Below are positions 3,118 to 64,000 of a stretch of DNA of 64,000 bases, piece after piece. Position 1 is the first letter of the stretch. Every line of letters starts with the position of its first letter. The notes beneath the pieces were generated by a model. The model did not search any database. It saw nothing but the letters and a program-made list of their open reading frames with translations, and was not told where the DNA came from. A program made the translations under genes and the position numbers. Source of the DNA: Amphiscolops sp. MND2022 (taxonomy: Eukaryota); assembly GCA_964187785.1 (NCBI GenBank), contig OZ076409.1, positions 57,848,001 through 57,912,000 on the forward strand. The letters run 5' to 3'.

Positions 3118-3686
3118 CTAATAACCAATCATATTTCCATCGTTTTTTATAGTTTTTACGAGGCGACTCTCATAAGATGCGTACATATTTCGGATAATTT
3201 CGGGACTGATATTGTTCCAAATATCAATCACTGTTTCTTCCAAATTTTCCCACGTTAGAGTTTGTCCTTGCAGGGATTTCTTCAGTATAGCCCAAATATT
3301 TTCCATGGGGTTCAAATCAGGACTATACGGAGGCCATTCGAGCACATCCCACTTCTTTTCACTTAGATAGTTGGAAACCTCTCTGCTTCTGTGAATTGGG
3401 GCATTATCGTGCTGGAAAACAATGTCCGGTAGGTGCAAATTTCTGTCATACTTTTCAAGAATTTCGACATAGCCGCTGCTATTGAGTGTTGCCGGGCATC
3501 TAATTAGCATCTTCCTGCCATCCGATCGAATAGCTCCCCAGAACATAAGCGAGCGTTTATCAGTGTTCTGCCCTTGAATATTTTTTGAGTGGAAACGCGA
3601 TCCTTTTTCTCGGAAAACTCTTACAATACCGTCACTGTTCAGACGCACACGAGTTTCATCAGTGAAAACCACATTTTCCCAGAATC
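3118..3686 (-). CDS. Tc1 transposase, DDE catalytic part, putative exon 2
   Basis: FWENVVFTDE, MFWGAI, FQHDNAPIH, WPPYSPDLNPMENIW; 34 residues between the second D and the E (DD34E); no stops or frameshifts. Confidence 0.95.
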
Positions 3687-3823
3687 CTTTTCCATCCAGC
3701 CAAGATTATTATGTAAATCTTCATGAGAAAAAGAATAGCAAAAGTAGAGTACTACAAAAATCTGCGATAATAAAAAACAAAAGAAAAAGTCAGAAAAAGT
3801 TGAAACACTTTGTCGATAAAGTT

Positions 3824-4500
3824 GAGGCTTAAGCAGGTCACCGACTTACGCTGTTCCCCGATTGTTTACGGTTCTTAGTCGGCGCTTATATCAAAAAGTG
3901 CCCGACTATTACAATGACATTTATTTTTTTTAGTCGCCGCTTTTAACTGTTCGAATTCAAGTAGATTTGGCGCAGCCGGTTGAATTCTCACTTTTGACAC
4001 CAAAGATTGTGGGTTCCACCCCAGGGCTGTCCCGTGTTTTTAGACGATTTCGCAAACAGAAGAAAAGGGTCACCCTGTGAATTTTTTTCGGCCCTGTGAA
4101 ACAAAAAAAATGAAATATTCGAAAAATCGAAATTTTGAAAAAAATTCCAAAATTCATGCATGGATTTTGTTTCAGTTCAAGGCCGTAATTGGAAGGTTTC
4201 AAAAATAAAAGAATGCATTCTTATTGTGAAATGTTGTGAAAAAAATTGGGAAAATTTCGAAGATTTTTTTTCGAAAATTTCGATTTTTTTTCTAAATTTT
4301 TGATTTTTTTGTCTCACAGTGCCGAAAAATTTCGAAGGGAGACCCTTTGGTGTTGAGAAAAAATTGTCTCACAGTGCCGAAAAGTTTGTAGGAGGGGCCG
4401 TTTGGTGTTGCGATAAAAAAATTAGGAAAATTCCGAAACTTTGAGATTTTTTTCGAAAATTTCCGATTTTTTTGCTGAAAATTTTCGTCTATTTGCGGAC
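3824..4500 (+). mobile_element. Helentron/HINE-like repeat pieces (tail followed by head and central repeats) inside the Tc1 insert
   Basis: Head hairpin TAGTCGGCGC..GTGCCCGACTA (3876-3908) as at 23550-23590 and 63545; degenerate tail CACCGACTT..CTGTTCCCCGATTGTT just before it; central repeats AAGGGAGACCCTTTG / CTCACAGTGCCGAAAA. Right boundary approximate. Confidence 0.65.
3961..4032 (+). repeat. tRNA-derived (SINE-head-like) Pol III module
   Basis: A-box-like TGGCGCAGCCGG (3968-3979) and B-box-like GGTTCCACCCC (4012-4022) at tRNA spacing; stems do not close. Confidence 0.55.
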
Positions 4501-4593
4501 TCTGTGTATGACTCTGTGTATGATTTTCCTTCCCAAAATTGAAAATTTTTTACTATGTACTTTTTTCAGTGAGTGCAAGGCTGGACAAAAAAC

Positions 4594-5026
4594 CGAGCGG
4601 CTTCTTGGACATTCGCAAGCACCATTTTTTCCTCGTTGTTCGTTGTTTTTTATTGAGCTGAAATTTTTTAGCCGCCACTCTAGAAACTAGCCCATACTTC
4701 TTCAGAACTCGCCGAATTGTAGATCTTGAGACACTTTTTGAGGTTGCAAAAGAATTATACTTTACCCTGATTCTTTGTAATGTAGTTTTGGGATCGTTTT
4801 TGACGCTTCTTATAATTAATCTTTTGTCTTTTTTGCTAAGTTTTTCCGGTCTTCCTGGTGGTTTTTTTGGAGAATAAGAACTGGTTTTCAAAAAGCGCTT
4901 GTAAGCTGACTGTGCTGTTGATCGTGACTTCAAACCCAATTTCTCTTTGATTTGATTGTAAGATAACCCAATCTCGCGAAGAGTAACAATTTTGCAAACC
5001 AAAAATGAATCAAGCGGTTTAACCAT
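4594..5026 (-). CDS. Tc1 transposase, N-terminal part (paired-like HTH DNA-binding region), putative exon 1
   Basis: ATG at 5026 (MVKPLDSF...), HTH-like GLSYNQIKEKLG, GRPEKL motif, second HTH (SVSRSTIRRVLKKYG), R..WC motif, ends KPL-G before a GT. Confidence 0.9.
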
Positions 5027-5504
5027 TTTCGAAGCACAACTTCCGGTAACTGATTGAAATTGTTCACAAATGTTTTCATTTTTTTTGACTTGAAAAAAAT
5101 TCAAAAAATTCAGCTGTACTTAGCTTTTTGGTACCATAGTGTATTTCACATCCGAAGTACCTATTTTATATTCGTATTTATGAGAAACTGGATTCAGTTC
5201 GACTCAATTAGAAAAGTCGATTATTCCGGGGGTGGCTGAATTCGCACCCACAGTTTCCACCTGGTAGCGATCAAAAAACCAGGAAAAACGCTATATCCGA
5301 ATTTTTGACGTTGTATCCGGAGATATCATTCGATAAAAGATAATTCCGAAACATTTCTGCGATTCAGTTGGATAAGATGAACACCCCGACATTAGATAGA
5401 TTCAAACACCCAACTGAAGTCTAGCCAGACGCAAAAAAGTCAGAGAAAACTTCATTATTATAAAACTTCATAAAATTCAAAACAGTCAAAATAGATTTTA
5501 AAAA

Positions 5505-23051: not shown

Positions 23052-23590
23052 AACAAGCCGGGAACGGCCAAAGTCGGCGCCATATCTAAGGCTCAAAATT
23101 TAAAAGGGGGACCCTTCGGGCTTTGTGAAACTCCAGCTGGTTGCAAAAAATTTTTAAAAAATTGAAGGGGGGACCCTTTGGAGACATGAAAATTTCCGAC
23201 AAATTTTTTAATGAGGTTTTTGAACAGTGTCACAGTGCCGAAAAATGTAAAAGGGGGGACCCTTTGCGATTTTTTGACATCCATTGTGTTGCAAAACATC
23301 AAAAAAAATTGAAGGGGGGACCCTTTGGGGAAAAAATTTCAATCCAAAAAGTTTCAAAAAGTCGCATAGTTCCGAAAAAAAGTGCGGATCCTTAGTGTGA
23401 TTTCGAGGTTGTGGACGTCTGTTTTGTTTTTTCTTTTCGTTTTGGACGCTTCTGAGGTTGGAGTTGTTGAGGTTTGAAGTTGTGGAGGTTGTTGAACAAA
23501 TGAACAAAAAGTGGACCTTTCGTGTCTAAAAAAAAAAAAACTACCCACTGTAATAGTCGGGCACATTTTCTACTAAAATGCGCCGACTAA
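23052..23590 (-). mobile_element. Helentron-associated non-autonomous element (HINE/DINE-1-like), complete copy
   Basis: Minus strand: TT + subTIR AGTCGGCGC with nearby partial inverted copy GTGCCCGACTA, central tandem AAGGGGGGACCCTTTG repeats, second subTIR GCGCCGACT, terminal stem-loop GCCG-TTCC-CGGC, then TTGTT; no TSD. Matches the established Helentron/DINE-1 layout. Confidence 0.75.
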
Positions 23591-23963: not shown

Positions 23964-24834
23964 CCCAGTGTAAAAACTCTTGGAACTCTTGATAAGAATC
24001 TTGGATATTCTTGGATTTCTTGGTAAGAATCTTGCCAAGACTCTTACCAAGAAATCCAAGAATTTGCAAGATCTTGCAAGATCGTGCCAAGAAATTCAAG
24101 AAACCCCAAGATTCTTATCAAGAGTTTCAAGAGAAACCAAGAATACGCAAGAAAATGCAAGAGGATTCAAGATTCCCTTTAGAACCTCAGTCATCATAAA
24201 ACCTTCAGAAGTCTCGGCAAATGAGCTAAAAATTATCAAAAATATCCAGCATTATGGAATTAGGATCTTAAAATTACAAATTTGGACCCAAATCTGATCA
24301 CGAAAGATCGATAAATGTAGCTGAAGTTGGAAAATCATTGAATGTTGCTCTCATAATTGCAAATTCAGATCTAAAATGAGCAAAATTATTACCTAAAAGG
24401 ATTGAAAACAAGATCCAAATGGTATGTATCAAGGATCTAAAAATTACATGTTCCAGACCAAAAATTGATCATATAAGGTTGAAATTTTGCAGATTTGGTA
24501 ATTGCAGACAATTTGTCTCTGAAATTGGCCTTAAATTTACCCAGAAAAGGGTTTTACAGAGAAAATTTTACAGATTTTTCCATAACATGGCCCAGAATAA
24601 CTGTAAACAGGTCTAATTCAACAATTTGTGAAATTGTACTGAATTTTGAAATAATCGAAATTTTCATCTCCCGGATTTCTTGATAAGAATCTTGGCAAGA
24701 TTCTAGTCAAGAAATTCAAGATTTTCTGGAAGAAGTAAGACTTTCCAAGATCTTATCAAGAAATTCAAGAGGTAGCAGGATTTTGTAGGAAAATCCAAAA
24801 TCTTGGTAAGAAATCCAAGAGTTTTTACACTGGG
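23964..24834. mobile_element. Non-autonomous DNA transposon (MITE), CCC..GGG termini, probable CMC/EnSpm type
   Basis: Perfect 21-bp TIR CCCAGTGTAAAAACTCTTGGA, TT 2-bp TSD (23962-63, 24835-36), dense subterminal TCTTG/CAAGA repeats at both ends. Confidence 0.88.
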
Positions 24835-25425
24835 TTAGTTCAAAGACTGAAGTAAGAGGAGTGATTTCTATTCAGTCTTTCGCGACACTATCGAAGTTAC
24901 TGGATGAGCGAATTGGCAAAGACGTGACAGAATACGCTTGCTTATTACCCTTGAGAAACTTTCGACACCTCACTTGTACTAAAAACACCTGATTACTACT
25001 GGTTCAGATTACCGAAGTTTTAAAGAGTCTTCGTCAATATCGCTCACACTGTGTCAGAAATAATGGTAAGATATTTGGACGGCATCCTCTAAACACAGAA
25101 GTTCTTTCTCATTGGCATTTTTCCGTTTATTGAACAATAGATTGGAAGTGGCAGAATTTGCTGACGTTACTACGATTTTTCAGGTAGTTGAACGCTTGGA
25201 TCTTTGGCTTCAAAACTAGGTAGATCGCATTTGTAGCTTGTTTGACTCCTACAAAATTTACTCCTACTCGCTCAGATATCGTGAGGTTTCAGAAAAAGCA
25301 AAAACTCATAAAGGAGCTTGCATGTGCTAAGTCATTCATATTGACACAAAACTGTCTTTCTGAAAACTCCTCGACTTTGTTTTGAGAAAACTCAAAAAAA
25401 TTGTGATTTGTCTCATAGCGTCGAT

Positions 25426-25662
<237 letters not shown>

Positions 25663-31208: not shown

Positions 31209-31482
31209 CAATTTGGTGAGTTTGTTTTTTCACAAATTTTTCTGCTTCTCTAACTATGCTCGTCTGATTTTTATTTCTCGTTCTCAATTTTTGCTTTTTG
31301 CGTCTCGGATATCCACAATTTTTGCATTTTTATGCCGTCCGTTACCGCCGTTTTGCTTCTGTTAACTTTGTAGCTTATATCTTCGTGGGAATTCCTGTTT
31401 TGCTGCCCCAGTTTTGTTTCAGTTACTTCCTTCTGCCTGTTTCGGGCTTTTGCTTGGAGTTTGTGAGGGATGGATCGACCTT

Positions 31483-31886
31483 TGTTGCGGCAGCAATGTC
31501 GTTAATTAAAAGCAGTCAAACAATAAGGCCAAATAGCTCAGTTTGTTAGAGCACCGGTCTCGGGACGAAAAGATCGCAGGTTCGATTCCCGGTAACTGCA
31601 AATATTTGGGAAAAACCCAAATATTCAAAATATCGCTAACTTTTGCAAATATATCTCAAAATAACCTTGAAAACACTGCAAAAGGGTGTTGCTATCTTGT
31701 TATTTACCATTGTTTGTAATTGTTTGTAAATGTTATTGATCATTCGTCTGCCAAAAGCAATATATTGACCGTTTAACATACTCATTTTTGCCTCGATTTG
31801 TGATCAAATCCCGTATGTTTGGCCCTCAATACATTAATGAACTCTAAATACGAAGTCTAGATTACCGAGAATTTAGCCCTTTTACA
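31483..31886 (+). repeat. BEL 5' LTR (404 bp)
   Basis: TGTTGCGG..TTTTACA; about 22 differences from the 3' LTR by manual comparison (~94-95% identity). Confidence 0.97.
31527..31600 (+). ncRNA. tRNA-like Pol III cassette inside the BEL 5' LTR
   Basis: GGCCAAA-TA-GCTC AGTTTGTTA GAGC (perfect D stem, A box), canonical spacing to B box GGTTCGATTCC; acceptor and anticodon stems do not pair, so not a translating tRNA. Confidence 0.75.
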
Positions 31887-31903
31887 TGGTGGCCATAGAG
31901 AGG
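31887..31903 (+). promoter_or_regulatory. BEL primer-binding site
   Basis: TGGTGGCCATAGAGAGG directly after the LTR CA; complementary to a tRNA ending ..GGCCA-CCA (tRNA-Ile-like ending, inferred). Confidence 0.8.
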
Positions 31904-32498
31904 CACGAATTATTGATTGGTTATACTATTTGAAACCTACAATTCTTCAGCGTATTGTTACAATCGTAAACTGATTGATCCAGTATTAATCGATAATTTC
32001 TTACAACTTTAATTTTGAGTTCGTCGTTCCCAAAATTTATAACCAGGATTAAATTTGGGATATAAAACTCAATAAAAATCAACCACCACCACCACCCCCA
32101 GCACCAGTACCGCCACATCTACAGCTTCTCATTCTGATTGTGCCGACTACCCCCCTCAGAGTAAGAAGGCCGCTGCTGCTGATAAAGAAAACAACAACAG
32201 CAGTGACGTCGCCATCTCCACAACCACTACCCCCATCGTTGAAGACTGCTTCAAAAATGAGCATGAAAAGCGTGGCAACGGCGATTGTGTCGATTTGAAT
32301 CCTAATTGTCTCTCTGAACAGCAACAGTGTCTGGGAAACAGAAAGCGAAAAAATCGCAACTCAGCTGACTATAATACCCTTCGAGTGAATGACGGTCACT
32401 CTTCCACGATCAACGAGAGTGAAGCCCGAGATTCTAATAAACACAAATATGACGTCACTGATTTGGAACCTGCTCACAAAGCACACTTGACTTCCTGA

Positions 32499-32632
32499 CC
32501 GTGACCCCTGGACGCTCACCCCTCAGCCCTGGAAGTTTTTCCCTGACCCTGGACGCTCACCCCTTAGCCCTGGAAGTTCTTCCCTGACCCCTGGAGCTTA
32601 CCAGTGAACCCCGGAAGATATTGATACCCTGG
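32499..32632 (+). repeat. ~41-bp tandem repeat in the BEL 5' leader
   Basis: TGACCC(C)TGGACGCTCACCCCT(C/T)AGCCCTGGAAGTT twice plus degenerate partial copies. Confidence 0.85.
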
Positions 32633-32811
32633 TAAAATTCTTTAAAATCTTATCGATGTTTGTATTTCAAAAGTGTGATTTGTTTTCGGGTAGCAAGATC
32701 TGGAAAATAATTTTGAGAACTTTTGAAAACCGCATGTATTTTGCTCGCAAAAAAAGGTTCATTAATCTCGATAAACGTAACAACAAGTAAAAAAATTGCA
32801 AAAGAAACTGA

Positions 32812-33414
32812 ATGGTTCAAATATTAGCTGCTAGTTCGTTGCATCATGCATTAGAAACTGTTATCCCTGAAAATCAAAACGCACTAAAAGAAAAAGTTTA
32901 TTCCATACCGGGCCTGAGCTTGAACATTAACGCAAAAGATCCTCGAAAAAATGTACAAAACCTGATTGAAAAAGATTTCAAAGACGAAAACGAACTGACA
33001 ATTTGGCACGACGTCATAAATAACAGCATTTGTAAACATAAAAGCAACTTTTACCGTGCCTTGTCAGTAATCAACCTAGTAAATGTTCTGAAATCTTATC
33101 AAAACAGAATCAGGGCTCTTGTGTACTGCCAACGGAATCGAACGCCTGACATTTTCTTGCAATTGAAAGAGACAAACATTCTTGAATTGAACATTGAAAA
33201 AGATTTTATCTCGTTGCGTAAGCAAAAAGATCTCGATTATTTGCAAAATTTGAAGGCGTTACACCAGAGACATGATCTAGAATTGAAACATCTAAATCTA
33301 GTCTTAAAGCATGAAAACAACCTCACCGAAATTACTGCCCGCAGTCGCCCCAAACGTCTCTCTAAACGCGCCCGCAAGGCGATAAAAAACCAGTCACTTG
33401 CTGCTGATAACTGA
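32812..33414 (+). CDS. Accessory 200-aa ORF of the BEL element, putative SGNH/GDSL-fold protein with basic C-terminal tail
   Basis: Intact ATG-to-stop ORF upstream of gag; motifs ILAASSL, SIPGLS, IWHDVINNSI and ALHQ are placed like SGNH blocks I/II/III/V; tail RSRPKRLSKRARKAIK. Fold is inferred. Confidence 0.6.
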   Translation: MVQILAASSLHHALETVIPENQNALKEKVYSIPGLSLNINAKDPRKNVQNLIEKDFKDENELTIWHDVINNSICKHKSNFYRALSVINLVNVLKSYQNRIRALVYCQRNRTPDIFLQLKETNILELNIEKDFISLRKQKDLDYLQNLKALHQRHDLELKHLNLVLKHENNLTEITARSRPKRLSKRARKAIKNQSLAADN

Positions 33415-33620
33415 CTTCCCTCTTCTTTTCTGTGTTGTGGCCGCGTCCGGACTTCATTGTCTGGTTGACGCTGCAACCAGTAAAAGTTTCTTTTCTGTGT
33501 TGTGTCCGAGCTTCACTGCTCGGTTGATTCACAGAAAGAACCCTCCTCCCGTAAAAAAGCAGCAGTCCTTTTTACCATCTGTACGTCGTGTAGATCATCG
33601 TAATCGTCCTCAGAATAATT

Positions 33621-36600
33621 ATGACTGATTTACAAGAGAAAGTTCAGAAGTTGCACGAAAGTCGATTGAAGGCGCAAACCGAACTAAACAGCTTGCAACA
33701 GAAGATCTCTGATTCCATTGCCAACGCAGACAGACGAGTAAAAGTTGAACGTCTCGTGAAAGAAGCCGAAGATGCAATGACGAGAGCATTTAGCAAAAAC
33801 GAACAAATTTTTGCGCTTGCATCAAAAACTACTAATGCTGAGGCACTCAAAGCGGACTTAGAACAGTGGTTGAAAGAGGTCACTGAGCAGAACGACAAAA
33901 TTTTGAGAAAAGCCTGTGAATATATTGATGCTTGCCCAGCAGCTGATGAAAAGTCACATTCTTCGGTCGGCACTGTTAACGAAAAGGCTTGGAAAAGATC
34001 TTCGATATCAACGAAAACGAAAACATTAAGTCAGAAACAGAAAGAACTTGTTTTAGCAATGCAACGTCGGGAAGAACTGGCACGACAGAGTGAAAACGCG
34101 CTACGTTTAGCCAAGCAGAGACATGAGTTCGCATGGAAACGCTTAGAAGAGGAACAGGGCCTCCAACTGGAAGAAATGGCAGAAGAAAGCCGACGAAAAC
34201 TTGCGGAAGCAAGAATTACCGAACTGGAGTTGACTGAAAACCTTTCTGAAGCGCCTGATGAATTCCACGAAACACTGTCTCGCATTAGCAATTACAGTAG
34301 ACAAACCGCAACCCAGAGAGTGTCCGACTGGGTCAATGATGTTGATTCGGAACCGCCACAGGCCGTAACTACTGAGGCCAACGCAGTAGCCGAATCTTCA
34401 AATCCGCCAGTTGCTTCAACAACACCAACAACAGAAGTTGTTCAAAGCGGCTATCCTAACCAACTCGCAGCGCTTGCATCTGGACTGAACACTTTTCCGC
34501 CTGAACAGCAGCTCAACGTTGCCGCTGTCAACTTTTCCATGCCAGTTATAACAAACAGCTCTCCTCCGTCACTGGCTGCGGTCAGTCACCTACCTTTTCG
34601 ACACGTGCCGTCTGCAGCCGCTCCTACAACAACCGTGCCCCCCATATCTCAGACCCCAAATTTGCCTTCGCAAACACAACAGCCTGTTATTCCGATTACA
34701 ACACAGCCTCTGCTCACCATGCCATCCAGCCATGCTGTTCCTAACTTGTCTGCTTGGACGTTCCCGGTTGGAAACAGCCTTCCAATAACACAATATACTG
34801 CCCCGCCTTCTACTGGAGGTCAATTTACTTCTTCAGGTACAGCCGCAGCGCCAATCGTGACTGAAACAACTGGTACCAAATTACCAGAGCGGAGGAACAA
34901 CTTATTACTGCAACCCTCAAGGCGTTACGGTTCCTACAGCGACCGTACCAATAACACAACCTACAACGACACTGATACCGGCTTCTATTTTCCCGAACTT
35001 TCAACATCCGATCGTTCCACCACCGACGCCAACGACCGTAACGGTGAACGATCTTGCTCAACTTTTGTCAGCAGCGCAAAAGGACCATCTTCCTGAGTGG
35101 AAACTGGCGCAATATAATGGAGATCCACTGCAATGGCATGAGTGGATAGGCCAGTTTAGGAGTGCCATTGACTCCGCACCACTTTCGAATGATGTGAAGC
35201 AGATGTATCTGAAAACACTCGTAACAGGCAAAGCGAAGACTGCAATTGCGGAGTTTGCATACTGTGGGACAAGGTACCAAGATGCACTGAAGACGCTTGA
35301 GCGTAAATTTGGTCAACCACAGGCAGTTGTGTCTACTCACCTTGAAAAACTGAATAGCTTTCCGCCATTGAAAATGCACAATAGCGACAATGTGATAGCA
35401 TTTTCTGCAACAATTCCGCTATGGTTGGTGTGTTCCGCTCGCTGAAATACGAACACGATTTGTCAAGTACAGCCTTACTGGGTCAAGCTGTGCAGAAACT
35501 TCCTCCTAACATGAAAGAAACTTGGTCTCTGCATACTGTGAAGAAAGATTGGACCCGAACAACCCCTTTGGATTTCAACGACCGGAAGGCCAACGAAAGT
35601 GCTTCCACTGTTACGCGCACCAAGACTGGAGCAAAAGTATTCGCCGCGGCTAGTTCTAGCGCACCTTCAACTGGAACTGCAACCAAGACAAACAGAGTAC
35701 AATTAGCTTGCATTGCTTGCAAAGAAATTCATCCTTTATGGCGATGTCGCGTGTTTCTCAGTAAAACACCCACCGAAAGAGCAAAAATAGTTGCCGAAAA
35801 CAAACTTTGCTTCTCGTGTTTTAAAGAAAATCACTCTTTCCGTCAATGTCCGCAACCACGCAAGTGCAATAAAGATGATTGCTCCAGTTCTCATAATACT
35901 CTGTTACACGGTGCTGAACGAGTCTTGCAACCAAGAACCACTCCAAAAACGTCACGTAACCAAGTAACTAGTTCTTGTAGCTCCACAACACGAAACAGCC
36001 AAACGGGTGAAAGTTCCGGCGTGTGCTCGATAACCGACATGAAAGGACTTCTTCAAATCACCGAAGTTGAGGTACATACTGGAACCAATCCCACAAAGGT
36101 GTTAGCTTTGTGTGACTCTGCTTGCAGTCACTCGTGGATTTCCGAAAATCTTGCAACAAAGCTTAACCTGAAAGGTTTACCAACCAAGTTAACAGTCCAT
36201 GGGATAAACTCACAACAGGTTGTTGACACTGAGATAGTTGAGCTCGAGTTGACGCCCGTTCATTCAGGTGGCTCTTGCTCTACTTTCGATGTCAAGCCTT
36301 ATGTGAGGAAGACTTTGCACGTTGGAAATGATGTCATTGATGTGGACTATCTGAAAACACTCTACCCTCACTTGGAGCCCATTGCTCTGAAGACGTACAG
36401 TTACGGAGATGTCGAAATGATACTGGGTCAAGACGTGTTCCATTCAATCCGCTCGTTGGAGTATTTTGAATCCGACCGAAAAAATTCTCCAATTGCCGTT
36501 TGAATACCGTTGGGTTGGGTTGGTTTTTGAGTGGACCATTGCCTTCGACTTCAGGACTCGTTTCGACGTGCTTCAAAGTTGTGACTCAAAGTGAGTGTGA

Positions 36601-39600
36601 CTCCCAGTTAGCCGATCAACTTCGGAGCTGGTACGAAATGGAATCCTTTGCAGCGAAGAAACAAGTCGACCCGCTCTCAGCTGCCGGTGCTAGAGCGTCG
36701 AAACTTTTGCAAGACACGACATACCAAGACGGATGCCGATATCAAGTCGGTATGTTGTGGGCTGATGACGACAGTAGCCTTCCGAACAACTACTTCTCAG
36801 CCTTAGTGCAACTGAAATCCCTCGAACGCCGACTCGAACGTACTCCGGATCTGAAAGCAAGCTACGCTCAGACGATAAAAGACAACTTCGACAAGGGATA
36901 CATCGTTAAGGTCCATAAGCCCGATTGTTTCAAAGTTGACAACCCTCGTGAGTGGTACCTACCGCACCACCCGGTGGTACACCTACACAAGCCAGGTAAA
37001 GTTCGCAGTGTACTTAATGGCGCTGCCAACTTCCACGGTGTTTCACTGAACAACGCACTACTTACTGGTCCAGATTTGTTGCAAACATTGATTCATGTGC
37101 TAATGCGCTTCCGACAACATCCCTACGCTGTCTCCGCTGACATAGAAGGAATGTTGTTGCAAGTTGGCGTGATTCCTCAAGACCGACCGTCTCTTCGTTT
37201 TCTGTGGCGGGAGGACCCAGCAACAGACGTCGCTGTGTACCAGTATATACGCCACATTTTGGGTTCAAAGGATTCACCTACTTGTGCCAACTATGCGCTT
37301 CAACGAACAGCACGTGATAACTGCAAAAAATTCCCGGAAGCCGCGAAAAGTGTCGAAAACTATTTTTATATGGACGATTATCTTGAGTCGAGCGCGATCA
37401 TTGACGAAGCAACCAAGAAATCTCAAGACCTTGTGAAAATGTTATCGAAAGGCGGTTTCACGTTAACCAAGTTTGTCAGTAACGTCCCCAACTTATCTAA
37501 CCGCCTCGACCCGAAAATTGAATTTGGTACCAAAACCGATGAAAAACTTTTGCAGCCGAAGATAAAAATTCTCATGTCTTAGGCTTGAATTGGAACCACT
37601 GGTTTGACACATTAGTTGTCAGTCGCGGAACCAGTGCCGACTTGAACCGACCTATAACACAACGCGTTGTTTTAAGCCTGGTCTCGGCAGTTTACGACCC
37701 CATTGGACTTGTTGCGCCACACACTGTAACAGCCCGGCTTTTGTTAAAAGATAGTTGGCGCCTTAGCGGGCAACAATGGGACAATAACCTACCGGAAGAC
37801 ATCTGTAAAAACATCCTCGATTGGGCTGAAGAACTTCCCACTTTGAGTTGCACATATTCGGCGACAGCTCTCAAAACGCGTTCTCGGCAGTTGCCTATCT
37901 CCGTGCGAAGTGAACAACGGCAAAGGTATGACTACCGAACTAGTCTTTGTTTTCGGGAAAGCTCGCGTTGCTCCAATGAAAGCACTCACAATACCGAAGT
38001 TGGAACTTCAAGCAGCTCTTCTCGCAGCCCGATTGAAAAATGAAGTTCAAAAGGCACTCACCCTAACTGTCGAACGAACGCTTATGTGGACAGACAGCAC
38101 CACTGTACTACAATGGTTTCACTCCATTGACAAACAACCCGTGTTCGTCGCCAATAGAGTTGCCGAGATACTTGAGCTGACGACAGTTGTTGAATGGAAC
38201 CACGTACCAACAGTTGACAATCCGGCCGACGCAGGCACCCGTGGCCTGTCAGCAAAAGCTCTTTTAGAGAGCACATGGCTGAAAGGTCCCGACTTCTTGA
38301 GGACTTCTGATTGGCCCTTCAAACCATCAGATGAAATTATGAAGTCAAAATCAAAGAAACTTGACTCCGAAAAAGTCCCTACCGAAACCAAATACCAAGA
38401 GACGACAGAGACGAATACCGCAAATGTAGTCTTCAATGCCCTAACTCTGGAGTGGCAAAAGTACAGCTCTTACGAGAAACTTTTGCGCATTTTGGCTTCT
38501 ATTTTGCGCCTTTTGCCGAAATTTTCCAACAACCGAACAAAAACAGGGTCAATAACGGATCCGTCCGAACTTGAAGTTGCCGAGCAGAAACTTATCTACT
38601 TAGTACAATCGGAATCGTTTCCGAACGAGAAGAGAAGTTGCTGAAATGTCTGGCGATCAGTAAACCCTCAGCAATAAAGGACTTTTCACCCTTCATTGGT
38701 CCAAACGGTCTCCTCCGAGCACAAGGTCGTACAAAACAACTCGAAGTTGCCATATTTGACGTCAAACATCCCATCTTGCTTGACAGTCGCCACACAGCAG
38801 TTCGATTATTCCTTGAGCATCTCCACGAGAAACACTGCCATCAAGGTGTCGAGTACCCGAGAGCCTTGATACAGCAGAAGTATGCCATTGTCAAATTGAG
38901 AACTGCATTGCGATCAATACAATCCAGATGCGTAACCTGTTTGCAAACGCAAAGCGGAAACGTTGACACCGATGATAGCTGATTTGCCAAAAAAACGCCT
39001 CGCCTTTGCATCACCACCATTCACCATCATCACCATCAACACTGGATTAGATTACTTTGGTCCCTTTTACGTTTCTGTCAAACGCTCCACAGAGAAGCGG
39101 TGGGGATTCCTCTTCACATGTCTAACTACCCGCGCTGTCCATTTTGAAGTTGTGCCGTCAATGGATACAAGTAGTTGCGTCAAGGGAATTGAGAGATTTG
39201 TCTCACGTCGGGGCATTCCCGCCGTCATCTGGTCGGACAACGGGACAATTTTTGTGGCGACTGAGAAAGAACTTCTTCAGAACGTTCTTAACTGGAATCA
39301 GCAAGCCATTACTGAGTCTATGGTCAAGAAAGGTATCAACTGGAAATTCAATCCTCCTAGCGCGGTGTCTGGGAAGGGCTAGTGAAACATTTAAACACAC
39401 ATTCTATGCGATACTTGGCAACAGACGTTTGACAGACGAAATCCTAACAACTGTTTTCTGTCTCGTAGAGCAGAGCCTCAACGCTCGCCCGTTAGTTCCA
39501 GCAAGCGCAGATGCCACTGATATGGATGCTTTGACACCCAACTACTTCCTGCTTGGAACCGCTGTCTCGTCTCTACCATGTCATTCCAACTGTGATCTCG

Positions 39601-39926
39601 ACCACCGCAAGCGATATGCACGCGCGCAAGCATACTCTGACGCCATCTGGAGCAGGTGGCTGAAAGAGTATGTACCGACTTTGAATCGTCGCGCCAAGTG
39701 GTCAACACAGTCTGACAGACAACTGAAGACCGGACATCTCGTTTGGATGGTAGAAGCCACAAGTCCTAGAGGCTACTACCCTCTCGCACGCGTAGTCAAA
39801 CTCCACTTTGGCAACGATGCCGTCGCCCGTTCTGCTGAAGTTAAAACCACGTCCAGAAACCTCGTCCGTCCGGTCGTGAAACTAGCTCCAGTTCTCCATC
39901 CCACCGATCTTGCCGATTCCCATTAA
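33621..39926 (+). pseudogene. BEL/Pao gag-pol polyprotein, frameshifted
   Basis: Coiled-coil N-terminus, BEL gag core (YNGDPLQWHEW..LERKFG), three Cys/His knuckles (CIACKEIHPLWRC, CFSCFKENHSFRQC, CNKDDCSSSHNTLLH), protease LCDSACSHSW, RT WYLPHH / ADIEGM / YMDD, RNase H ARVAP..IPKLELQAA / WTDS / NPADAGTRG, integrase GLDYFGP / SDNGT, C-terminal RPVVKL; many frame breaks. Confidence 0.96.
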
Positions 39927-40105
39927 TTTCCCTTCTTGTTATGCATTAATCACATGCACCTTTCCTGTTTAACCACATGTATCTTTGTTACACATGTATC
40001 ATATAGTGTCGTTGTACCAAACCGACCAAAAAAATTCAAAAAAATGAAAAAAACTGTTTTTTTCCTTTATAAAGAAACATTCCTCATCTTCTTGGGCCCG
40101 GAGGA

Positions 40106-40510
40106 TGTTGCGGCAGCAATGTCGTTAATTAAAAGTAATCAAACAATGAGGCCAAATAGCTCAGTTTGTTAGAGCACCGGTCTCAGAACCAAAAGATCGC
40201 AGGTTCGATTCCCGGTAACTGCAAATTTTTGGGAAAAACCCAAATATTCAAAATATCGCTAGTTTTTGCAAATATATCTCAAAAAAAACCTTGAAAACAC
40301 TTCAAAAAGGTCTTGCTATCTTGTTATTTACCATTGTTTGTAATTGTTTGTAAATGTTATTGATCATTTGTCTGCCAAAAGCAATAATTTGACCGTTTAA
40401 CATTTTCATTTTTGCCTCGATTTGTGATCAAATCCCGTATGTTTGGCCCTCAATACATTGTTGAACTCCAAATACGAAGTCTAGATTACCGAGAATTTAG
40501 CCCTTTTACA
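40106..40510 (+). repeat. BEL 3' LTR (405 bp)
   Basis: Direct repeat of 31483-31886, preceded by a purine-rich tract and followed by the TSD. Confidence 0.97.
40150..40230 (+). ncRNA. tRNA-like Pol III cassette in the BEL 3' LTR with T5 terminator
   Basis: Same A box/D stem and B box as the 5' copy; TTTTT at 40226-40230 immediately after the tRNA-length body. Confidence 0.75.
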
Positions 40511-40515
40511 ACCTT

Positions 40516-43500
40516 TGCAGTATCTCTAGTTCTCTGACAAGGAAGAAGACTTCGCTGTGTGGCAGGAGCGATTCGAGGTGTTCTGTTTCACGAAGAAGCT
40601 GCTGAAAATCCTGATTGGAACAGATGCTGGTTCGAATGACAAGAAGTACGAAATTTGGGCGTACTTGGTACAGTGTCTCGACAGCCGCAGTAACATGATG
40701 CTAACGAACGACTGCAAGGGTGATGGTCCGAAGGCATGGCAACTACTGCAGGACCACTTCAAAAGCACCGAAACACCGAAGTTGATGAACCTATTGGAGA
40801 AGTTCACAACCCTGCGATTGGAGCCCACGGAGAGCATGGTTGACTACCTGACTCGATCGTAGTATGTGAGTATGCGAGTATGTGAGTATGAACTTGCTGG
40901 TGAGAAAGTTTCTGGAAACATGTTAACTTCAATAGTTCTCAAGGGTTTGCCTCCCGAAGATGACTACTTTAAAACTGTGCACAATTTTTCGAAAGATAAG
41001 GCGTCTTTCGCGGAAGTGAAGAAGGCATTTAAAAAATTCGAATGTTCTCGTAACCTACAAACTGCGACAGCTGCCAATGAAATTGTTGCTTTGTTATCCA
41101 AAGGAACTGTTGCGAAAAGTTCCGCGCGAAAACCTGAAAAGTTCACTGGGAAGTGTATGCGTTGCGGTAAAAGTGGACATAAACAAGGCAGCCACTTGCA
41201 GAGTATCTCAGTGCAACTTTTGCAGGCGTTTTTGCCATGAAGAGAATATGTATTTCAAGAAAAACCCTCTTTTAAACCCTAGGTCAAGTGCTGAGACAGG
41301 AGAGTCAAACCTAGCTGAGGACTTAGTTTTCTTTTGCGATGGTAGTGAGACTGCACTCACTAGCCAAAAATGCGAGGTGAAGAAGCACACTTTGGTCATT
41401 GATTCTGGTGCTTGCTCGCATATGTTTTTGACCGTTCTCAGTTCTTCGACTTTAGCGAAGAAACACAACGCAAAGTAAAAAATGCGAATGGGACTTTTTC
41501 GCAAGTTAAGGGTATTGGAAAATTTTACTTTTGGACAAGGATGGGATCGAACAATGTGTGACACTTTCGGACTGTCTTTTTCTTCCCGATCATTCTCATA
41601 AGTTGTTCAGCGTTAGCAAGTTGAGACAAAACAGGGCTCACGTGGACTTCGGACAATCTCTGAGCGTTTTTGTCAATGGAAGAGCAACTATTTCTTTTGA
41701 AGAGCACGCTAATCTTTACGTTTTGGAAAGGAAAGACATTTGATCTTTGTTCTTTTCCCGGCGAGAACGAAGAAGCGGTGCTGTGGCATCATCGCCTTGG
41801 TCACAACAATTTCAAAAATCTGAAATGTTTGGCTCATCGTGTTTCAGGAATGAGCTTGAAATACACTGCTTTTGATGACCTTTGTTGTTGTGAATTTGGC
41901 AAAATTTCGAAGTCACCATGGCAACCAGTATCGCGAAAAATGGAGAAAAGAAAATTTTCGAAACTTGATCTCGTTTCCACTGACATTTTGGGACCGATGC
42001 CAACTACTTGGTGGCAACCAATACGCTATTTCTTTTACAGATAGCTACAGCAGGTACTCAGCGGAATGGTTCCTCTAATCGAAGTAGGAGAGAGATCAAT
42101 TCAAAGTTCTTTGTGAGCAAGGGGGAACGCCCAGAGCAATCCGTTCTGATAATGGAAAAGAGTACATTTCCAAGTCTTTCCGAAGTTTTTGTATATCAAA
42201 CCGAATCAAACGTGAGCATACTGCCTCTTATTCGCCTCATCAAATGGTGTGAGTGAACGTCGCTGGCGAACAACAGTCGAAATGGCTCGCTGCATGCTAA
42301 AAACAGCCAATATCGGCAAAGAGTTTTGGGTTCGGCCTTACACACTGCTATTTACATTTCAAAACGTTGCCTCACAGTCAATTTCCCAAAAGGTAAAACG
42401 CTCTTCGAAATGTTCTTTGGTGAAAAACCAGATCTTTCCAATTTGAAAGTTTTTGGTTGTACTGCTTTCAAACTCAATGAAACGCATCAAGACAAAGTTT
42501 CCGATAAAGCCACCGAAGAACTTTTTGTTGGTTATTCTGAGGATTCCGAAGCATATATTTTGTACAATTCTTACTCTAAAATGACTTCGTTTTCTCGCAA
42601 CGTCTCCTTTGATGAGACTTCTTTTAACTCTTTTGAAGCGCCGCACCCAAGTCAGAACATCCAAGCATTTGTAACCGAAAAGCCGGCATCGAAGCAAGGT
42701 TTGCCTGAAACACAGAAACATTTTTGCGAAAAATCTCAGTTCCTATTCCACCGACTGAAACATTGAACGACTTCGAAACTGAAACAACTCCTTCCCCGTT
42801 GATGTTGTTTCATCTGAAAACATTGATGCTATTGAAAGTAGTGTTTTTTCGCGGTCTAGAAGTGGGAGAGTTATCAAACGTCCTGCGTATCTCGACGACC
42901 ACGTTCTTTTAACGGATGACAGCGATGAGAATCTAACTTAACGTGAAGCAATGAAGTCATCACCTAAAAGCGAATGGATCGAAGCTACTCTAAAGGAGTA
43001 CAATGCGCTCATTGAGAACAAGAGATGCGTGTTTTCTCCGCTTCCCCGGGCCAAAAAGCAATTGGAACCCGGTGGGTTTTCAAAATTAAGCGACACGACG
43101 ACGGAACTATTAGGAAATTCGAGGCTCGTTTCGTAGCCAAGGGTTTTCGCAAGTTTTTGGAACCGATAACGATAAAACTTTTGCGCCTACTGCCAAACTT
43201 TGTACATTGAGGTTTTCTTTTGCGCTCGCTGCTTCTTGGTCGACTTCTGTTTTTCAGTTAGACGTCCGTTCATCCTTTCTCAATGCGAACTTAAGTGATG
43301 AAGTTTACATAGCCAGCAGGCTTTGCGCAAGCAGGGGCTAATGGTGAAACACTTTATTGCAAGCTTCAAAAATGTCTTTATGGTTTAAAGCAAGCAGGGA
43401 GGGAATGGAACAAAACCTTAACCCAGTGGTTTTTGAAGAACGAATTTATACAGTCTGCCGAAGGATCATTGTCTTCTTCGTTGCGATGGGAACAATGTTG

Positions 43501-46765: not shown

Positions 46766-47730
46766 AGTTTTGCCCGGAGCAGGCTAACTGCTTTCATTTC
46801 AAACTACTACATTACATGTTTAACAACAACAAAATTAAAGTACATATTAACTCAAACTAATTTCCAAGTTTATGACATTTTCAATGGGTATTGGTACAAC
46901 TATAGTAATTGACCAGTATAGCTAGTACATGACTAACTTCAATGATTACAAATTACATCATCACTGCTTTTAAGGATTCAAAACAATATGATCAAGGAAA
47001 TTAGCATTGAAAAGAACTTGTTACAAACATTAGAAATTAACGCGTTGAGCACGCGAGATTAAGGACATATTTCACTGAGGTGGAGATCTCATCATTTACT
47101 CTTTCATCACCAAAACGGTGACCTTTCGTATTATATTAGGAATCTTCACCTAAAACGCAAAACGGTATTTAGGACGCTCAGGAATCGCACTGGCTTGGAA
47201 GTTAATTTATACAACGTTTGTTTTGCCCGGAGCTAGGACGCTCAAGATTAGCACTGGCTTGGAAGTTAATTTATACAACGATTGTTTTGCCCGGAGCAGG
47301 CTAACTATATTTGTTTCATACAACTACGTTACATCTTTAACAACAACAATGAATACATAATAACTCAAACCAATTTTGTAAGTTTATGACATTTTCAATG
47401 GGTATTGTTACAACTATAGTAATTGACCAGTATAGATAGGACGCGACTATTTTCAATGAATACAAATTACATCATCACTGCTTTTAGGGATTCAATACAC
47501 ATGATCAAGGAAATTATCATTGAAAAGAGCTTGTTACAAACTTTGAAAATTAACGTGTTGAGCACGCGAGATTAAGGACATATTTCACTGAGGTGGGGAT
47601 CTCATCATTTACTCTTTCATCACCAAAACGGTGACCTTTCGTATTATATCAGGATTTTTCACCTAAAAAGCAAAACGGTTTTTAAGTCGCTCAAGAATAG
47701 CACTGGCTTAGAAGTTACTTTATACAACGT
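46766..47730. repeat. Tandem duplication of a ~450-bp unit with a ~63-bp hybrid junction copy
   Basis: Units start TTTTGCCCGGAGC at ~46768, 47221 and ~47285 and end GAAGTTA(A/C)TTTATACAACG. Confidence 0.9.
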
Positions 47731-48630
47731 ACGGTCAGCGTTGCATGAACAAAATTTTATTTTCACAGATGTAGAGAATAGCACTTCAATTCACCTTACG
47801 GTACAGCTTTTGACATACAAAATCTTATCCTTAAAGTTCTTTTATTACATTTTTTCTCGAAACGATCCCATTCAAAACTAGCTCGCAATATCATTCAATA
47901 GTTACAATGTTACTATTCGCCCTCGTCGGAGCCTCGGCTCTGCGATGGAGCCATAGTGAAACCATGAACAAACAGAAAGGCCCCATCCACCTAAACGTGA
48001 GAAACTAATTTTATTTTATACGTAATTGAAGGTCATCTGAATGTTAAATATTTTCCCCATTCAAAGATTCATTGATTTGATGCTAATGTTAAATTGACAG
48101 TCTGAATGTCATTTTTGTCATGAATATTTGAAACTTCGAGCCTATTCATCTCTGTGTGACGTAATCTTGAAGCTACAGCGCTTTCGTTAATTCACCCTTG
48201 CAGTAATGAACATTTTCATTCATTTTCGACATACGGCATTATGCAGTTTAAAGACTGCCAATTCTGCGGCTTCATACAATTTTGCACAAAATCACTGTGC
48301 GGCAATTTACGGTTCTAAGAGTGACGCATATGCGTTCTCATGTGTTTTGCCAGCTTACGATATCAAACGTTTTTCCTAATGATGTTTACACGGTACTATA
48401 CATTTCCTGCAGAAAGAACTGTCATGTATAGATAATGCATATATGATTCCGTATGTCATTTGCAATACCTTGTACGTTGCTTTGTATTACCTTTTCTAAG
48501 GTCCAAAACGACCGCCAAGTTTGATTTGAATGTCATGGTATGATGATCGCAAGATATAAGTAGAATGCCTCTCTTTTGATGTAATGCTTTTTTCGTACTT
48601 TTCCCAACAATGACTCTTTAAAAAAAGGGA

Positions 48631-63543: not shown

Positions 63544-64000
63544 TTAGTCGACGCTTTTCTTAAGAAAAGAGCCCGACTATTACAGTCACTTGTTTTTTTT
63601 ATTATTTAAGACAGACTCGAAGCGACGAACGTTAAAATTAACGTTCAACTACTAAATACAGTACTAAACTACTGGACCGGTAAAGGCAAACGGGGAGCGC
63701 ATTCATTTACTTTTTAAACGTTACCTACAAGCCCGGACGGGACTAAAGGGTCCCCCTTTTGATTTTTTTTGGCACTGCGATTTTTTATCGAAAATTTTTT
63801 AATGTCCCCAAAGGGTCCCCCCTTTGAGTTTTTTGTTATTTTGCTACAGAATGCGTGTTTATAAATCAAAAAGGGTCCCCCCTTTTACATTTTTCGGCAC
63901 TGTGCGACATTTTCCGGAAGAATTTTTTTTCGAAAATTTCAAGTTTTTTTCCAAAAAAAATGTTTTGCGCTTTTTGAGCCTTAGATATAGCGCCGACTTG
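63544..64000 (+). mobile_element. HINE-like element, runs off the window end
   Basis: Head TTAGTCGACGC..GAGCCCGACTATTACAG, AAAGGGTCCCCCC central repeats, tail GAGCCTTAGATATAGCGCCGACTT matching the reverse complement of 23071-23095. Confidence 0.8.

Follow-up and report, generated by a model that had tools for sequence, protein, structure and literature searches.

The window analysed here is a 64,000-nucleotide stretch of DNA from Amphiscolops sp. MND2022, and it houses a complete but decayed BEL/Pao element at 31483-40510. The element begins and ends in TG...CA long terminal repeats (LTRs)—a 5′ LTR of about 404 nt (31483-31886, + strand) paired at 94.6% identity with a 3′ LTR (40106-40510, +)—and is flanked by a 5-bp target-site duplication, ACCTT, at 31478-31482 on the left, beside the 5′ LTR, and 40511-40515 on the right, beside the 3′ LTR (neither copy is assigned a strand). 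A primer-binding site whose complement ends in CCA (31887-31905, +) lies directly after the 5′ LTR; a further stretch at about 31200, before the 5′ LTR, bears what we take to be a likeness to a primer site. The host site of the BEL element is itself a decayed Copia element, with copia gag, pre-integrase, and SH3 matches at 40530-42766, past the 3′ LTR. Elsewhere the window contains a Tc1/mariner transposase in two pieces (3118-5119, − strand; DDE_3 and HTH_Tnp_Tc3_2), inverted copies of a dispersed repeat (23147-23578 and 63555-63909), a CAAGA-rich palindromic array (23977-24820), a long CT microsatellite (25420-25660), and a 513-nt tandem duplication (46767-47746).

The BEL/Pao gag-pol (33621-39926, +) is spread over nine open stretches that encode DUF1759, zinc knuckles, protease, reverse transcriptase (RT), Peptidase_A17, integrase, and DUF5641. 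The Pfam matches fall in BEL/Pao order (DUF1759, aspartyl protease, RVT_1, Peptidase_A17, integrase, DUF5641); DUF1759, Peptidase_A17, Integrase_H2C2, and DUF5641 score above the Pfam cut-off, and the protease, RVT_1, and rve score below it, yet in the expected order. At least eight breaks, be they mutations or assembly errors, interrupt gag-pol within 6.3 kb, and no env-like ORF was found after it. The element is assigned to BEL/Pao by its TG...CA LTRs, target duplication, primer-binding site, and gag with PR-RT-RH-IN domains, and it shares with the Belpaoviridae the LTRs, the primer-binding site, gag and pol, the PR-RT-RH-IN order, and a length below 10 kb (PMC8742986); the ICTV profile of that family, which describes BEL/Pao elements as metazoan, however, gives only gag, pol, and env, whereas the element in the window has an additional ORF.

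Both LTRs contain a tRNA-like stretch, at 31533-31593 (+) in the 5′ copy and at about 40156-40216 in the 3′ copy, with a B-box-like GGTTCGATTCC and an imperfect A box. An earlier reading made from the letters of the sequence (hereafter the sequence-only reading) had called this a Pol III LTR cassette; the stretch is indeed present in both repeats, but it scores just 12 bits against the Rfam tRNA family, below the gathering threshold of 29. ARAGORN reports no tRNA in the stretch, and a strict A-box/B-box pattern does not match it. A literature search that covered titles and the starts of abstracts returned no description of an LTR with a tRNA-like stretch.

Upstream of gag lies a stand-alone ORF (32812-33414, +) that runs unbroken from ATG to TAA and encodes a 200-aa protein, P0001, with a predicted SGNH fold. 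The protein displays the motifs ILAASSL, SIPG, WHDVINNSI, and ALH and an Arg/Lys-rich tail, and the sequence-only reading was correct in describing an intact ORF with such motifs apart from gag-pol: the gag ATG (33621) stands in another frame, 206 nt past the ORF stop, and there is no ATG within the spacer between them. Resampling the surrounding 1.7 kb 1000 times produced a stop-free frame of 200 codons only twice. At the break density of gag-pol, chance alone would leave 47% of neutral 603-nt stretches open; the intactness of the ORF therefore proves nothing—the same reading had already cautioned that it is weak evidence—and the case for selection is made by conservation among relatives.

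The 925-nt leader that precedes the ORF holds six short upstream ATG frames, which argue against simple scanning to the ORF ATG; all six ATGs share one frame, other than that of a 140-codon open frame without ATG (32076-32498, +). This open frame is rich in Thr, Asn, and Asp and has no Pfam match; possibly it is what is left of a further gene of this additional kind. Repeat analysis places short tandem direct repeats with a 41-nt unit at 32506-32608 (+), and a simple pattern search found no consensus splice acceptor in the leader or the spacer. A nested insertion was considered as the source of the ORF and rejected, since neither terminal repeats nor a target duplication flank it.

Relatives of P0001 are numerous. 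A protein search returned 164 among 354 candidates, and the 120 that are listed are almost all ENA proteins without a name, about 200 aa in length and encoded on long contigs, with identity tiers of 70-90% and 50-62% and clusters of up to 43 members. A profile search over 1.84 billion representatives gave 872 clusters (defined at 50% identity) at E 0.001 or better, 567 of them at 1e-10 and 125 at 1e-30. In a tree of 47 sequences P0001 is nested in a graded series of subfamilies within a deep radiation; the relatives grade from 90% to 55% identity, all of them about 200 aa long and with the same residues kept, and such a series requires selection between successive subfamilies. No fused form of 523-2000 aa was seen among 7,999 candidates, which is weak evidence, and the viral contigs and prokaryote genomes scanned contain no relatives. 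The N-terminal extensions of longer relatives are mutually unrelated and look like gene-calling extensions. Metagenome contigs provided three loci of 1.1-1.7 kb with relatives at 34-44% identity; no gag is seen beside the ORF in these short loci, whose flanks are uninformative. At one of them (L001:1385-1545) a 47-nt direct repeat starts at the stop codon of the 44%-identity relative, an echo, in unrelated sequence, of the repeated hairpins that follow the ORF in the window.

The ORF also keeps company with sister copies of gag. Members of the clusters of the window's two gag pieces occur on 13 other contigs, and 7 of the 13 also carry a listed ORF relative, with contigs equated between the ORF and gag listings by equal size alone. 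The relatives on the seven shared contigs comprise five from the closest ORF cluster, one from the next cluster, and one single protein-search match; one of the shared contigs measures just 18,249 bases. The closest ORF cluster has 17 members, and 5 of its 15 listed contigs also bear sister gag, versus 0 of 97 listed for seven more distant clusters (Fisher p 2e-5), each cluster being listed in part and four of the seven control clusters possibly stemming from other assemblies. On the shared contigs, the ORF products share 86-91% and the gag products 89.5-93% identity with their counterparts in the window. The ORF and gag have been amplified jointly, an observation that says nothing on their order or distance in sister copies. 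The ORF is very probably a regular, selected part of a BEL/Pao family; its recurrence on contigs with sister gag bears out the earlier assignment to the element family and is not that of a one-off insertion.

Two confident AlphaFold models of P0001 were built, one from 50 closer sequences (pLDDT 83.9) and one from 79 diverse sequences (pLDDT 96.2). Over residues 1-174 the 79-sequence model has five short strands interleaved with helices, and the basic tail follows. Against 48,161 solved chains it gives 29 matches at Z ≥8, with SGNH/GDSL esterases in the lead: an acetyl xylan esterase (7ddy) is the best match (Z 10.7, rmsd 3.8 Å, 154 residues aligned), and the GDSL lipase 3p94 (Z 10.6) and the catalytic domain of OatA (6vjp, Z 10.4) come next. 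By title, SGNH/GDSL enzymes make up the majority of the best 50 structural matches; Ca_00311, Ca_00815, CgnD, OatA, the phage tail proteins, and ISAV HE are matches that we take to be SGNH members. The 50-sequence model agrees and matches SGNH structures too. The structure of the ZfL2-1 esterase, a LINE protein discussed below, is absent from the best 50 matches of each fold search.

Pfam assigns P0001 to no Lipase_GDSL, Lipase_GDSL_2, or other SGNH family, and no GDSL/SGNH family is among the 25 best families for 50 members or the 25 best for 79 members; sequence and profile searches of the PDB (P0001, 50 and 79 members) found no match. Weak Pfam hits (TPR_ZFYVE26, KaiA_N, and others) were discarded as below cut-off or at odds with the model. 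An Atlas search with P0001 gave nothing usable, and one with the relative P0228 reached Lipase_GDSL clusters at 0.88, which we treat as a lead only. Homodimer prediction without an alignment scored 0.00, which is no evidence either way. The SGNH fold named in the sequence-only reading is upheld by both AlphaFold models; Foldseek likewise ranks the SGNH family first, but has no match at E 0.001 or better. Judged from the models, P0001 almost certainly adopts an SGNH fold; it belongs to the SGNH superfamily by this fold and by its Ser, Gly, Asn, and His residues, and it stands outside the Pfam GDSL families.

Conservation was assessed in an alignment of 79 sequences of 188-235 aa with a median identity of 32%—75 full-length sequences of the 150 listed, plus 4 closer ones—that left out shorter, partial, and longer sequences and is hence biased to intact ones. 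The putative catalytic positions are Ser8 (32833), Gly34 (32911), Asn70 (33019; with Asn71 as the alternative), and His151 (33262). His151 is kept in 77 of the 79, Ser8 in 75, Gly34 in 73, Asn71 in 71, and Asn70 in 64 (with Ser in 13); Ser8, Gly34, Asn70, and His151 occur together in 55/79. Among 197 close full-length relatives, Ser8 is kept in 192, Gly34 in 191, Asn70 in 196, and His151 in 194, and P0001 itself has all four. Other well-kept residues are His66 (75/79), Tyr105 (72/79), Asp67 (71/79), and Glu157 and Ser134 (70/79 each), and Trp65 and two Leu are also as conserved as the presumed catalytic residues. Because His66, Asp67, Trp65, Tyr105, and the two Leu are equally conserved, conservation alone cannot single out catalysis.

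The equivalence of the Ser, Gly, Asn, and His blocks is drawn from strand and helix position and from spacing, rather than from superposition. In block I, Ser8 follows the strand at residues 3-6 and starts the helix at 8-15, within a G/A-A-S motif (Gly6 in 53/79); in block II, Gly34 follows strand 2. Block III places Asn70 after strand 3, with the Gly of G-x-N-D replaced by V/I/L/A, and the oxyanion-hole Asn would be Asn70 or Asn71; in block V, His151 comes before the domain's last helix. The step of four residues from His66 to Asn70 resembles, in spacing only, that from H191 to N195 of ZfL2-1, and Tyr105 lies near the site that matches the partner Ser of ZfL2-1 (S228), at the end of strand 4, where there is no Ser. 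Position 148, where the canonical D-x-x-H has its acid, is Asp or Glu in 2/79, and P0001 is not in the canonical D-x-x-H class. Across SGNH structures the Asp is present in 23 of 30, and a main-chain oxygen serves instead in five, according to the accessible text of PMC10792757.

As far as the aligned sequences can tell, the Ser, Gly, Asn, and His positions are clearly under purifying selection. The sequence-only reading had described the protein as possibly non-catalytic and lipid- or RNA-binding. A rival explanation of this kind is a catalytically dead SGNH-fold protein, like the OSK domain of Oskar, that binds element RNA or lipids and in which the kept residues hold the fold or the pocket. 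The lack of a block V Asp (an acid in 2/79) and of a block III Gly speaks for such a protein, as do its very basic character and conserved basic tail, the presence of OSK (5a4a, Z 8.0 against the P0001 model) among the matches, and the liposome binding of ZfL2-1, which needs no active site in the sections available of PMC3905857. OSK shares the SGNH fold and the basic character of P0001, but it is described as without the catalytic triad in the text seen of PMC10792757, whereas the P0001 family keeps Ser8, Gly34, Asn70/71, and His151 at a median identity of 32%, including the catalytic Ser and His that an Oskar-like protein has lost; active enzymes also outrank OSK by more than 2 Z. A dead domain is thus unlikely, and since Ser8, Gly34, Asn70, and His151 are kept in 75, 73, 64, and 77 of the 79, among the best-kept positions at this level of divergence, 'non-catalytic' becomes the weaker reading. 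The conserved positions make an active esterase without the Asp a likelier identity for the P0001 family than a dead domain, and on balance we lean towards catalytic activity.

SGNH esterases are known in other transposable elements; for BEL/Pao, we found none described in the papers searched. SGNH/GDSL esterases occur in ORF1 of LINEs (CR1/L2/RTEX) and in Penelope-like elements, and the accessible sections of the same paper describe the ZfL2-1 esterase as active but slow, as binding liposomes by charge and independently of the active site, and as having an arginine-rich motif, with H191 belonging to a pair of residues conserved in transposon esterases alone and N195 as the oxyanion residue (PMC3905857). 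P0001 resembles the LINE ORF1p and ZfL2-1 esterases in having an SGNH fold upstream of the polymerase gene and in keeping Ser, Gly, Asn, and His, and resembles ZfL2-1 further in the His four residues before the block III Asn, a high pI, and an arginine-rich motif in the same protein. Unlike the LINE ORF1p esterases as reported there, it belongs to an LTR element, is encoded by a 200-aa ORF of its own that accompanies a true gag, and has no coiled coil; unlike ZfL2-1, it has its basic motif after the domain instead of before it and no block V Asp, and no sequence match between the two was found. P0001 stands outside the LINE ORF1p esterase class.

SGNH/GDSL genes are also reported from ORF3 of the Vesta LTR elements of bdelloid rotifers and from Terminons (accessible text of PMC5408684, PMC6431247, and PMC5718144). 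Vesta ORF3, like the ORF in the window, stands by itself as an SGNH ORF of an LTR retrotransposon and has its catalytic residues intact; it sits after pol, whereas the P0001 ORF precedes gag and is without the Asp (PMC5408684). The sections available of that paper name the lineages as Vesta, Juno, TelKA, and Mag, not BEL/Pao, and report that Vesta ORF3 does not deviate clearly from neutrality within the genome (PMC5408684). An SGNH ORF is borne by amphibian Ngaro elements (PMC9210276) and an SGNH gene by a platyfish Helitron (PMC4021074; cited in PMC7599744), each of unproven function in the text available. These too are extra SGNH hydrolase ORFs in transposable elements, but Ngaro is a tyrosine-recombinase element and Helitron a rolling-circle element, and in Ngaro the ORF follows the recombinase and a standard domain search picks it up (PMC9210276). 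No SGNH/GDSL ORF in BEL/Pao or before gag was found in the full-text literature searched, a scope outside which lie Repbase, supplements, and most subscription journals; the accessible text of two BEL surveys (PMC3118150, PMC8556966) and of the Troyka paper (PMC12440569) does not contain 'esterase' or 'hydrolase'.

Two features at the 3′ end of the ORF are relevant to what the protein may bind. The first is the Arg/Lys-rich C-terminal tail (residues 177-193; 33340-33390, +), which lies outside the SGNH match, is mostly helical in the model (H185-199), and is found in most of 91 representatives; the median pI of the family is 10.5, that of P0001 is 9.7, and P0001 has no hydrophobic, signal, or membrane segment. 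The second is the spacer, the best-folding region of the element, in which two related tandem hairpins with the same 21-nt opening repeat (33425-33540, +) are followed by a small hairpin and by a predicted hairpin with the gag AUG (33621) in its 3′ arm (33589-33634, +). This fold (33425-33634) has a predicted energy of -70.7 kcal/mol and a z of -6.2, with 0 of 200 shuffles as good. Because the segment had been picked by gene ends, an evenly spaced scan was added, and of its 148 windows over the element 33403-33552 was best (z -5.5; the next was -3.9). The opposite strand of the spacer folds nearly as well (-62 vs -71 kcal/mol), and neither the spacer hairpins nor the leader match an Rfam family. 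The predicted fold is a candidate packaging, export, or internal-initiation signal.

We propose, with a probability of about 0.5 for the explanation as a whole, that the ORF is a selected accessory gene of a BEL/Pao family and that its product is an Asp-less esterase that binds element RNA and membranes. The product would be a soluble protein, small and basic, that has the SGNH fold and acts as a serine esterase through a catalytic pair of Ser and His; a main-chain oxygen, or the conserved Asp67 or Glu157, may stand in for the missing acid. The ORF would be translated as the first cistron, and gag-pol would be reached via the structured spacer or from a separate transcript. The C-terminal tail may bind element RNA—the adjoining tandem hairpins are the obvious candidate site—and acidic membranes would be bound by charge, as they are by the ZfL2-1 LINE esterase. 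RNA and Gag particles would thereby be brought to membranes, for assembly or transport there, and slow ester hydrolysis would serve as the release step. The targeting of RNA and membranes is drawn by analogy and is the tentative part of this proposal, a little short of an even chance.

The enzyme could instead be an active acetyl-esterase or acyl-transferase that works on a glycan or protein of the host, as it might to evade defences or to pass between cells, and not on the element's own particle. The top structural matches include acetyl-xylan, sialic-acid, and peptidoglycan O-acetyl enzymes, the matches also contain a viral haemagglutinin-esterase, and the element is without env; however, the SGNH Z values are tied within about 1 and are silent on the substrate, a signal or membrane segment is absent, and the basic tail and adjoining RNA hairpins point to RNA binding, so that a host substrate seems distinctly improbable. 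Very unlikely is a passenger gene, selected elsewhere (in another element or a small mobile unit), that entered the leader once and was copied along unused: the three short loci of distant relatives that show no gag, the 47% chance of intactness, and the movement of esterases between element classes (accessible text of PMC5408684 and PMC3905857) would fit, but the ORF has no terminal repeats or target duplication around it, ORF and gag have diverged alike in sister copies, and the 90%-55% series of proteins of about 200 aa keeps the same residues throughout.

An accessory esterase encoded before gag would matter for several reasons. Esterases recur in LINEs, Penelope-like elements, Ngaro and Helitron elements, and a small number of rotifer LTR elements. 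A soluble esterase of 200 aa that stands alone, next to an ordinary gag, is uncoupled from the part of Gag substitute that LINE ORF1p plays, and such a protein is easy to express and assay. The family, with at least 872 clusters, was missed by Pfam and by PDB sequence searches, and an Asp-less active site with a conserved Trp-His-Asp (Trp65-His66-Asp67) would be of interest to SGNH enzymology. With this ORF, BEL/Pao acquires a position for a gene ahead of gag as well as another kind of gene. A bolder and rather doubtful extension is that the hundreds of divergent lineages are the first genes of a large, undescribed, env-less BEL/Pao radiation, and that the protein is a new Asp-less SGNH class that grips the tandem hairpins of its own RNA and tethers assembly to membranes. 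If that were true, the protein would open to an LTR element a way to membranes like that of LINEs, and perhaps a way into other cells, with no need of an envelope protein.
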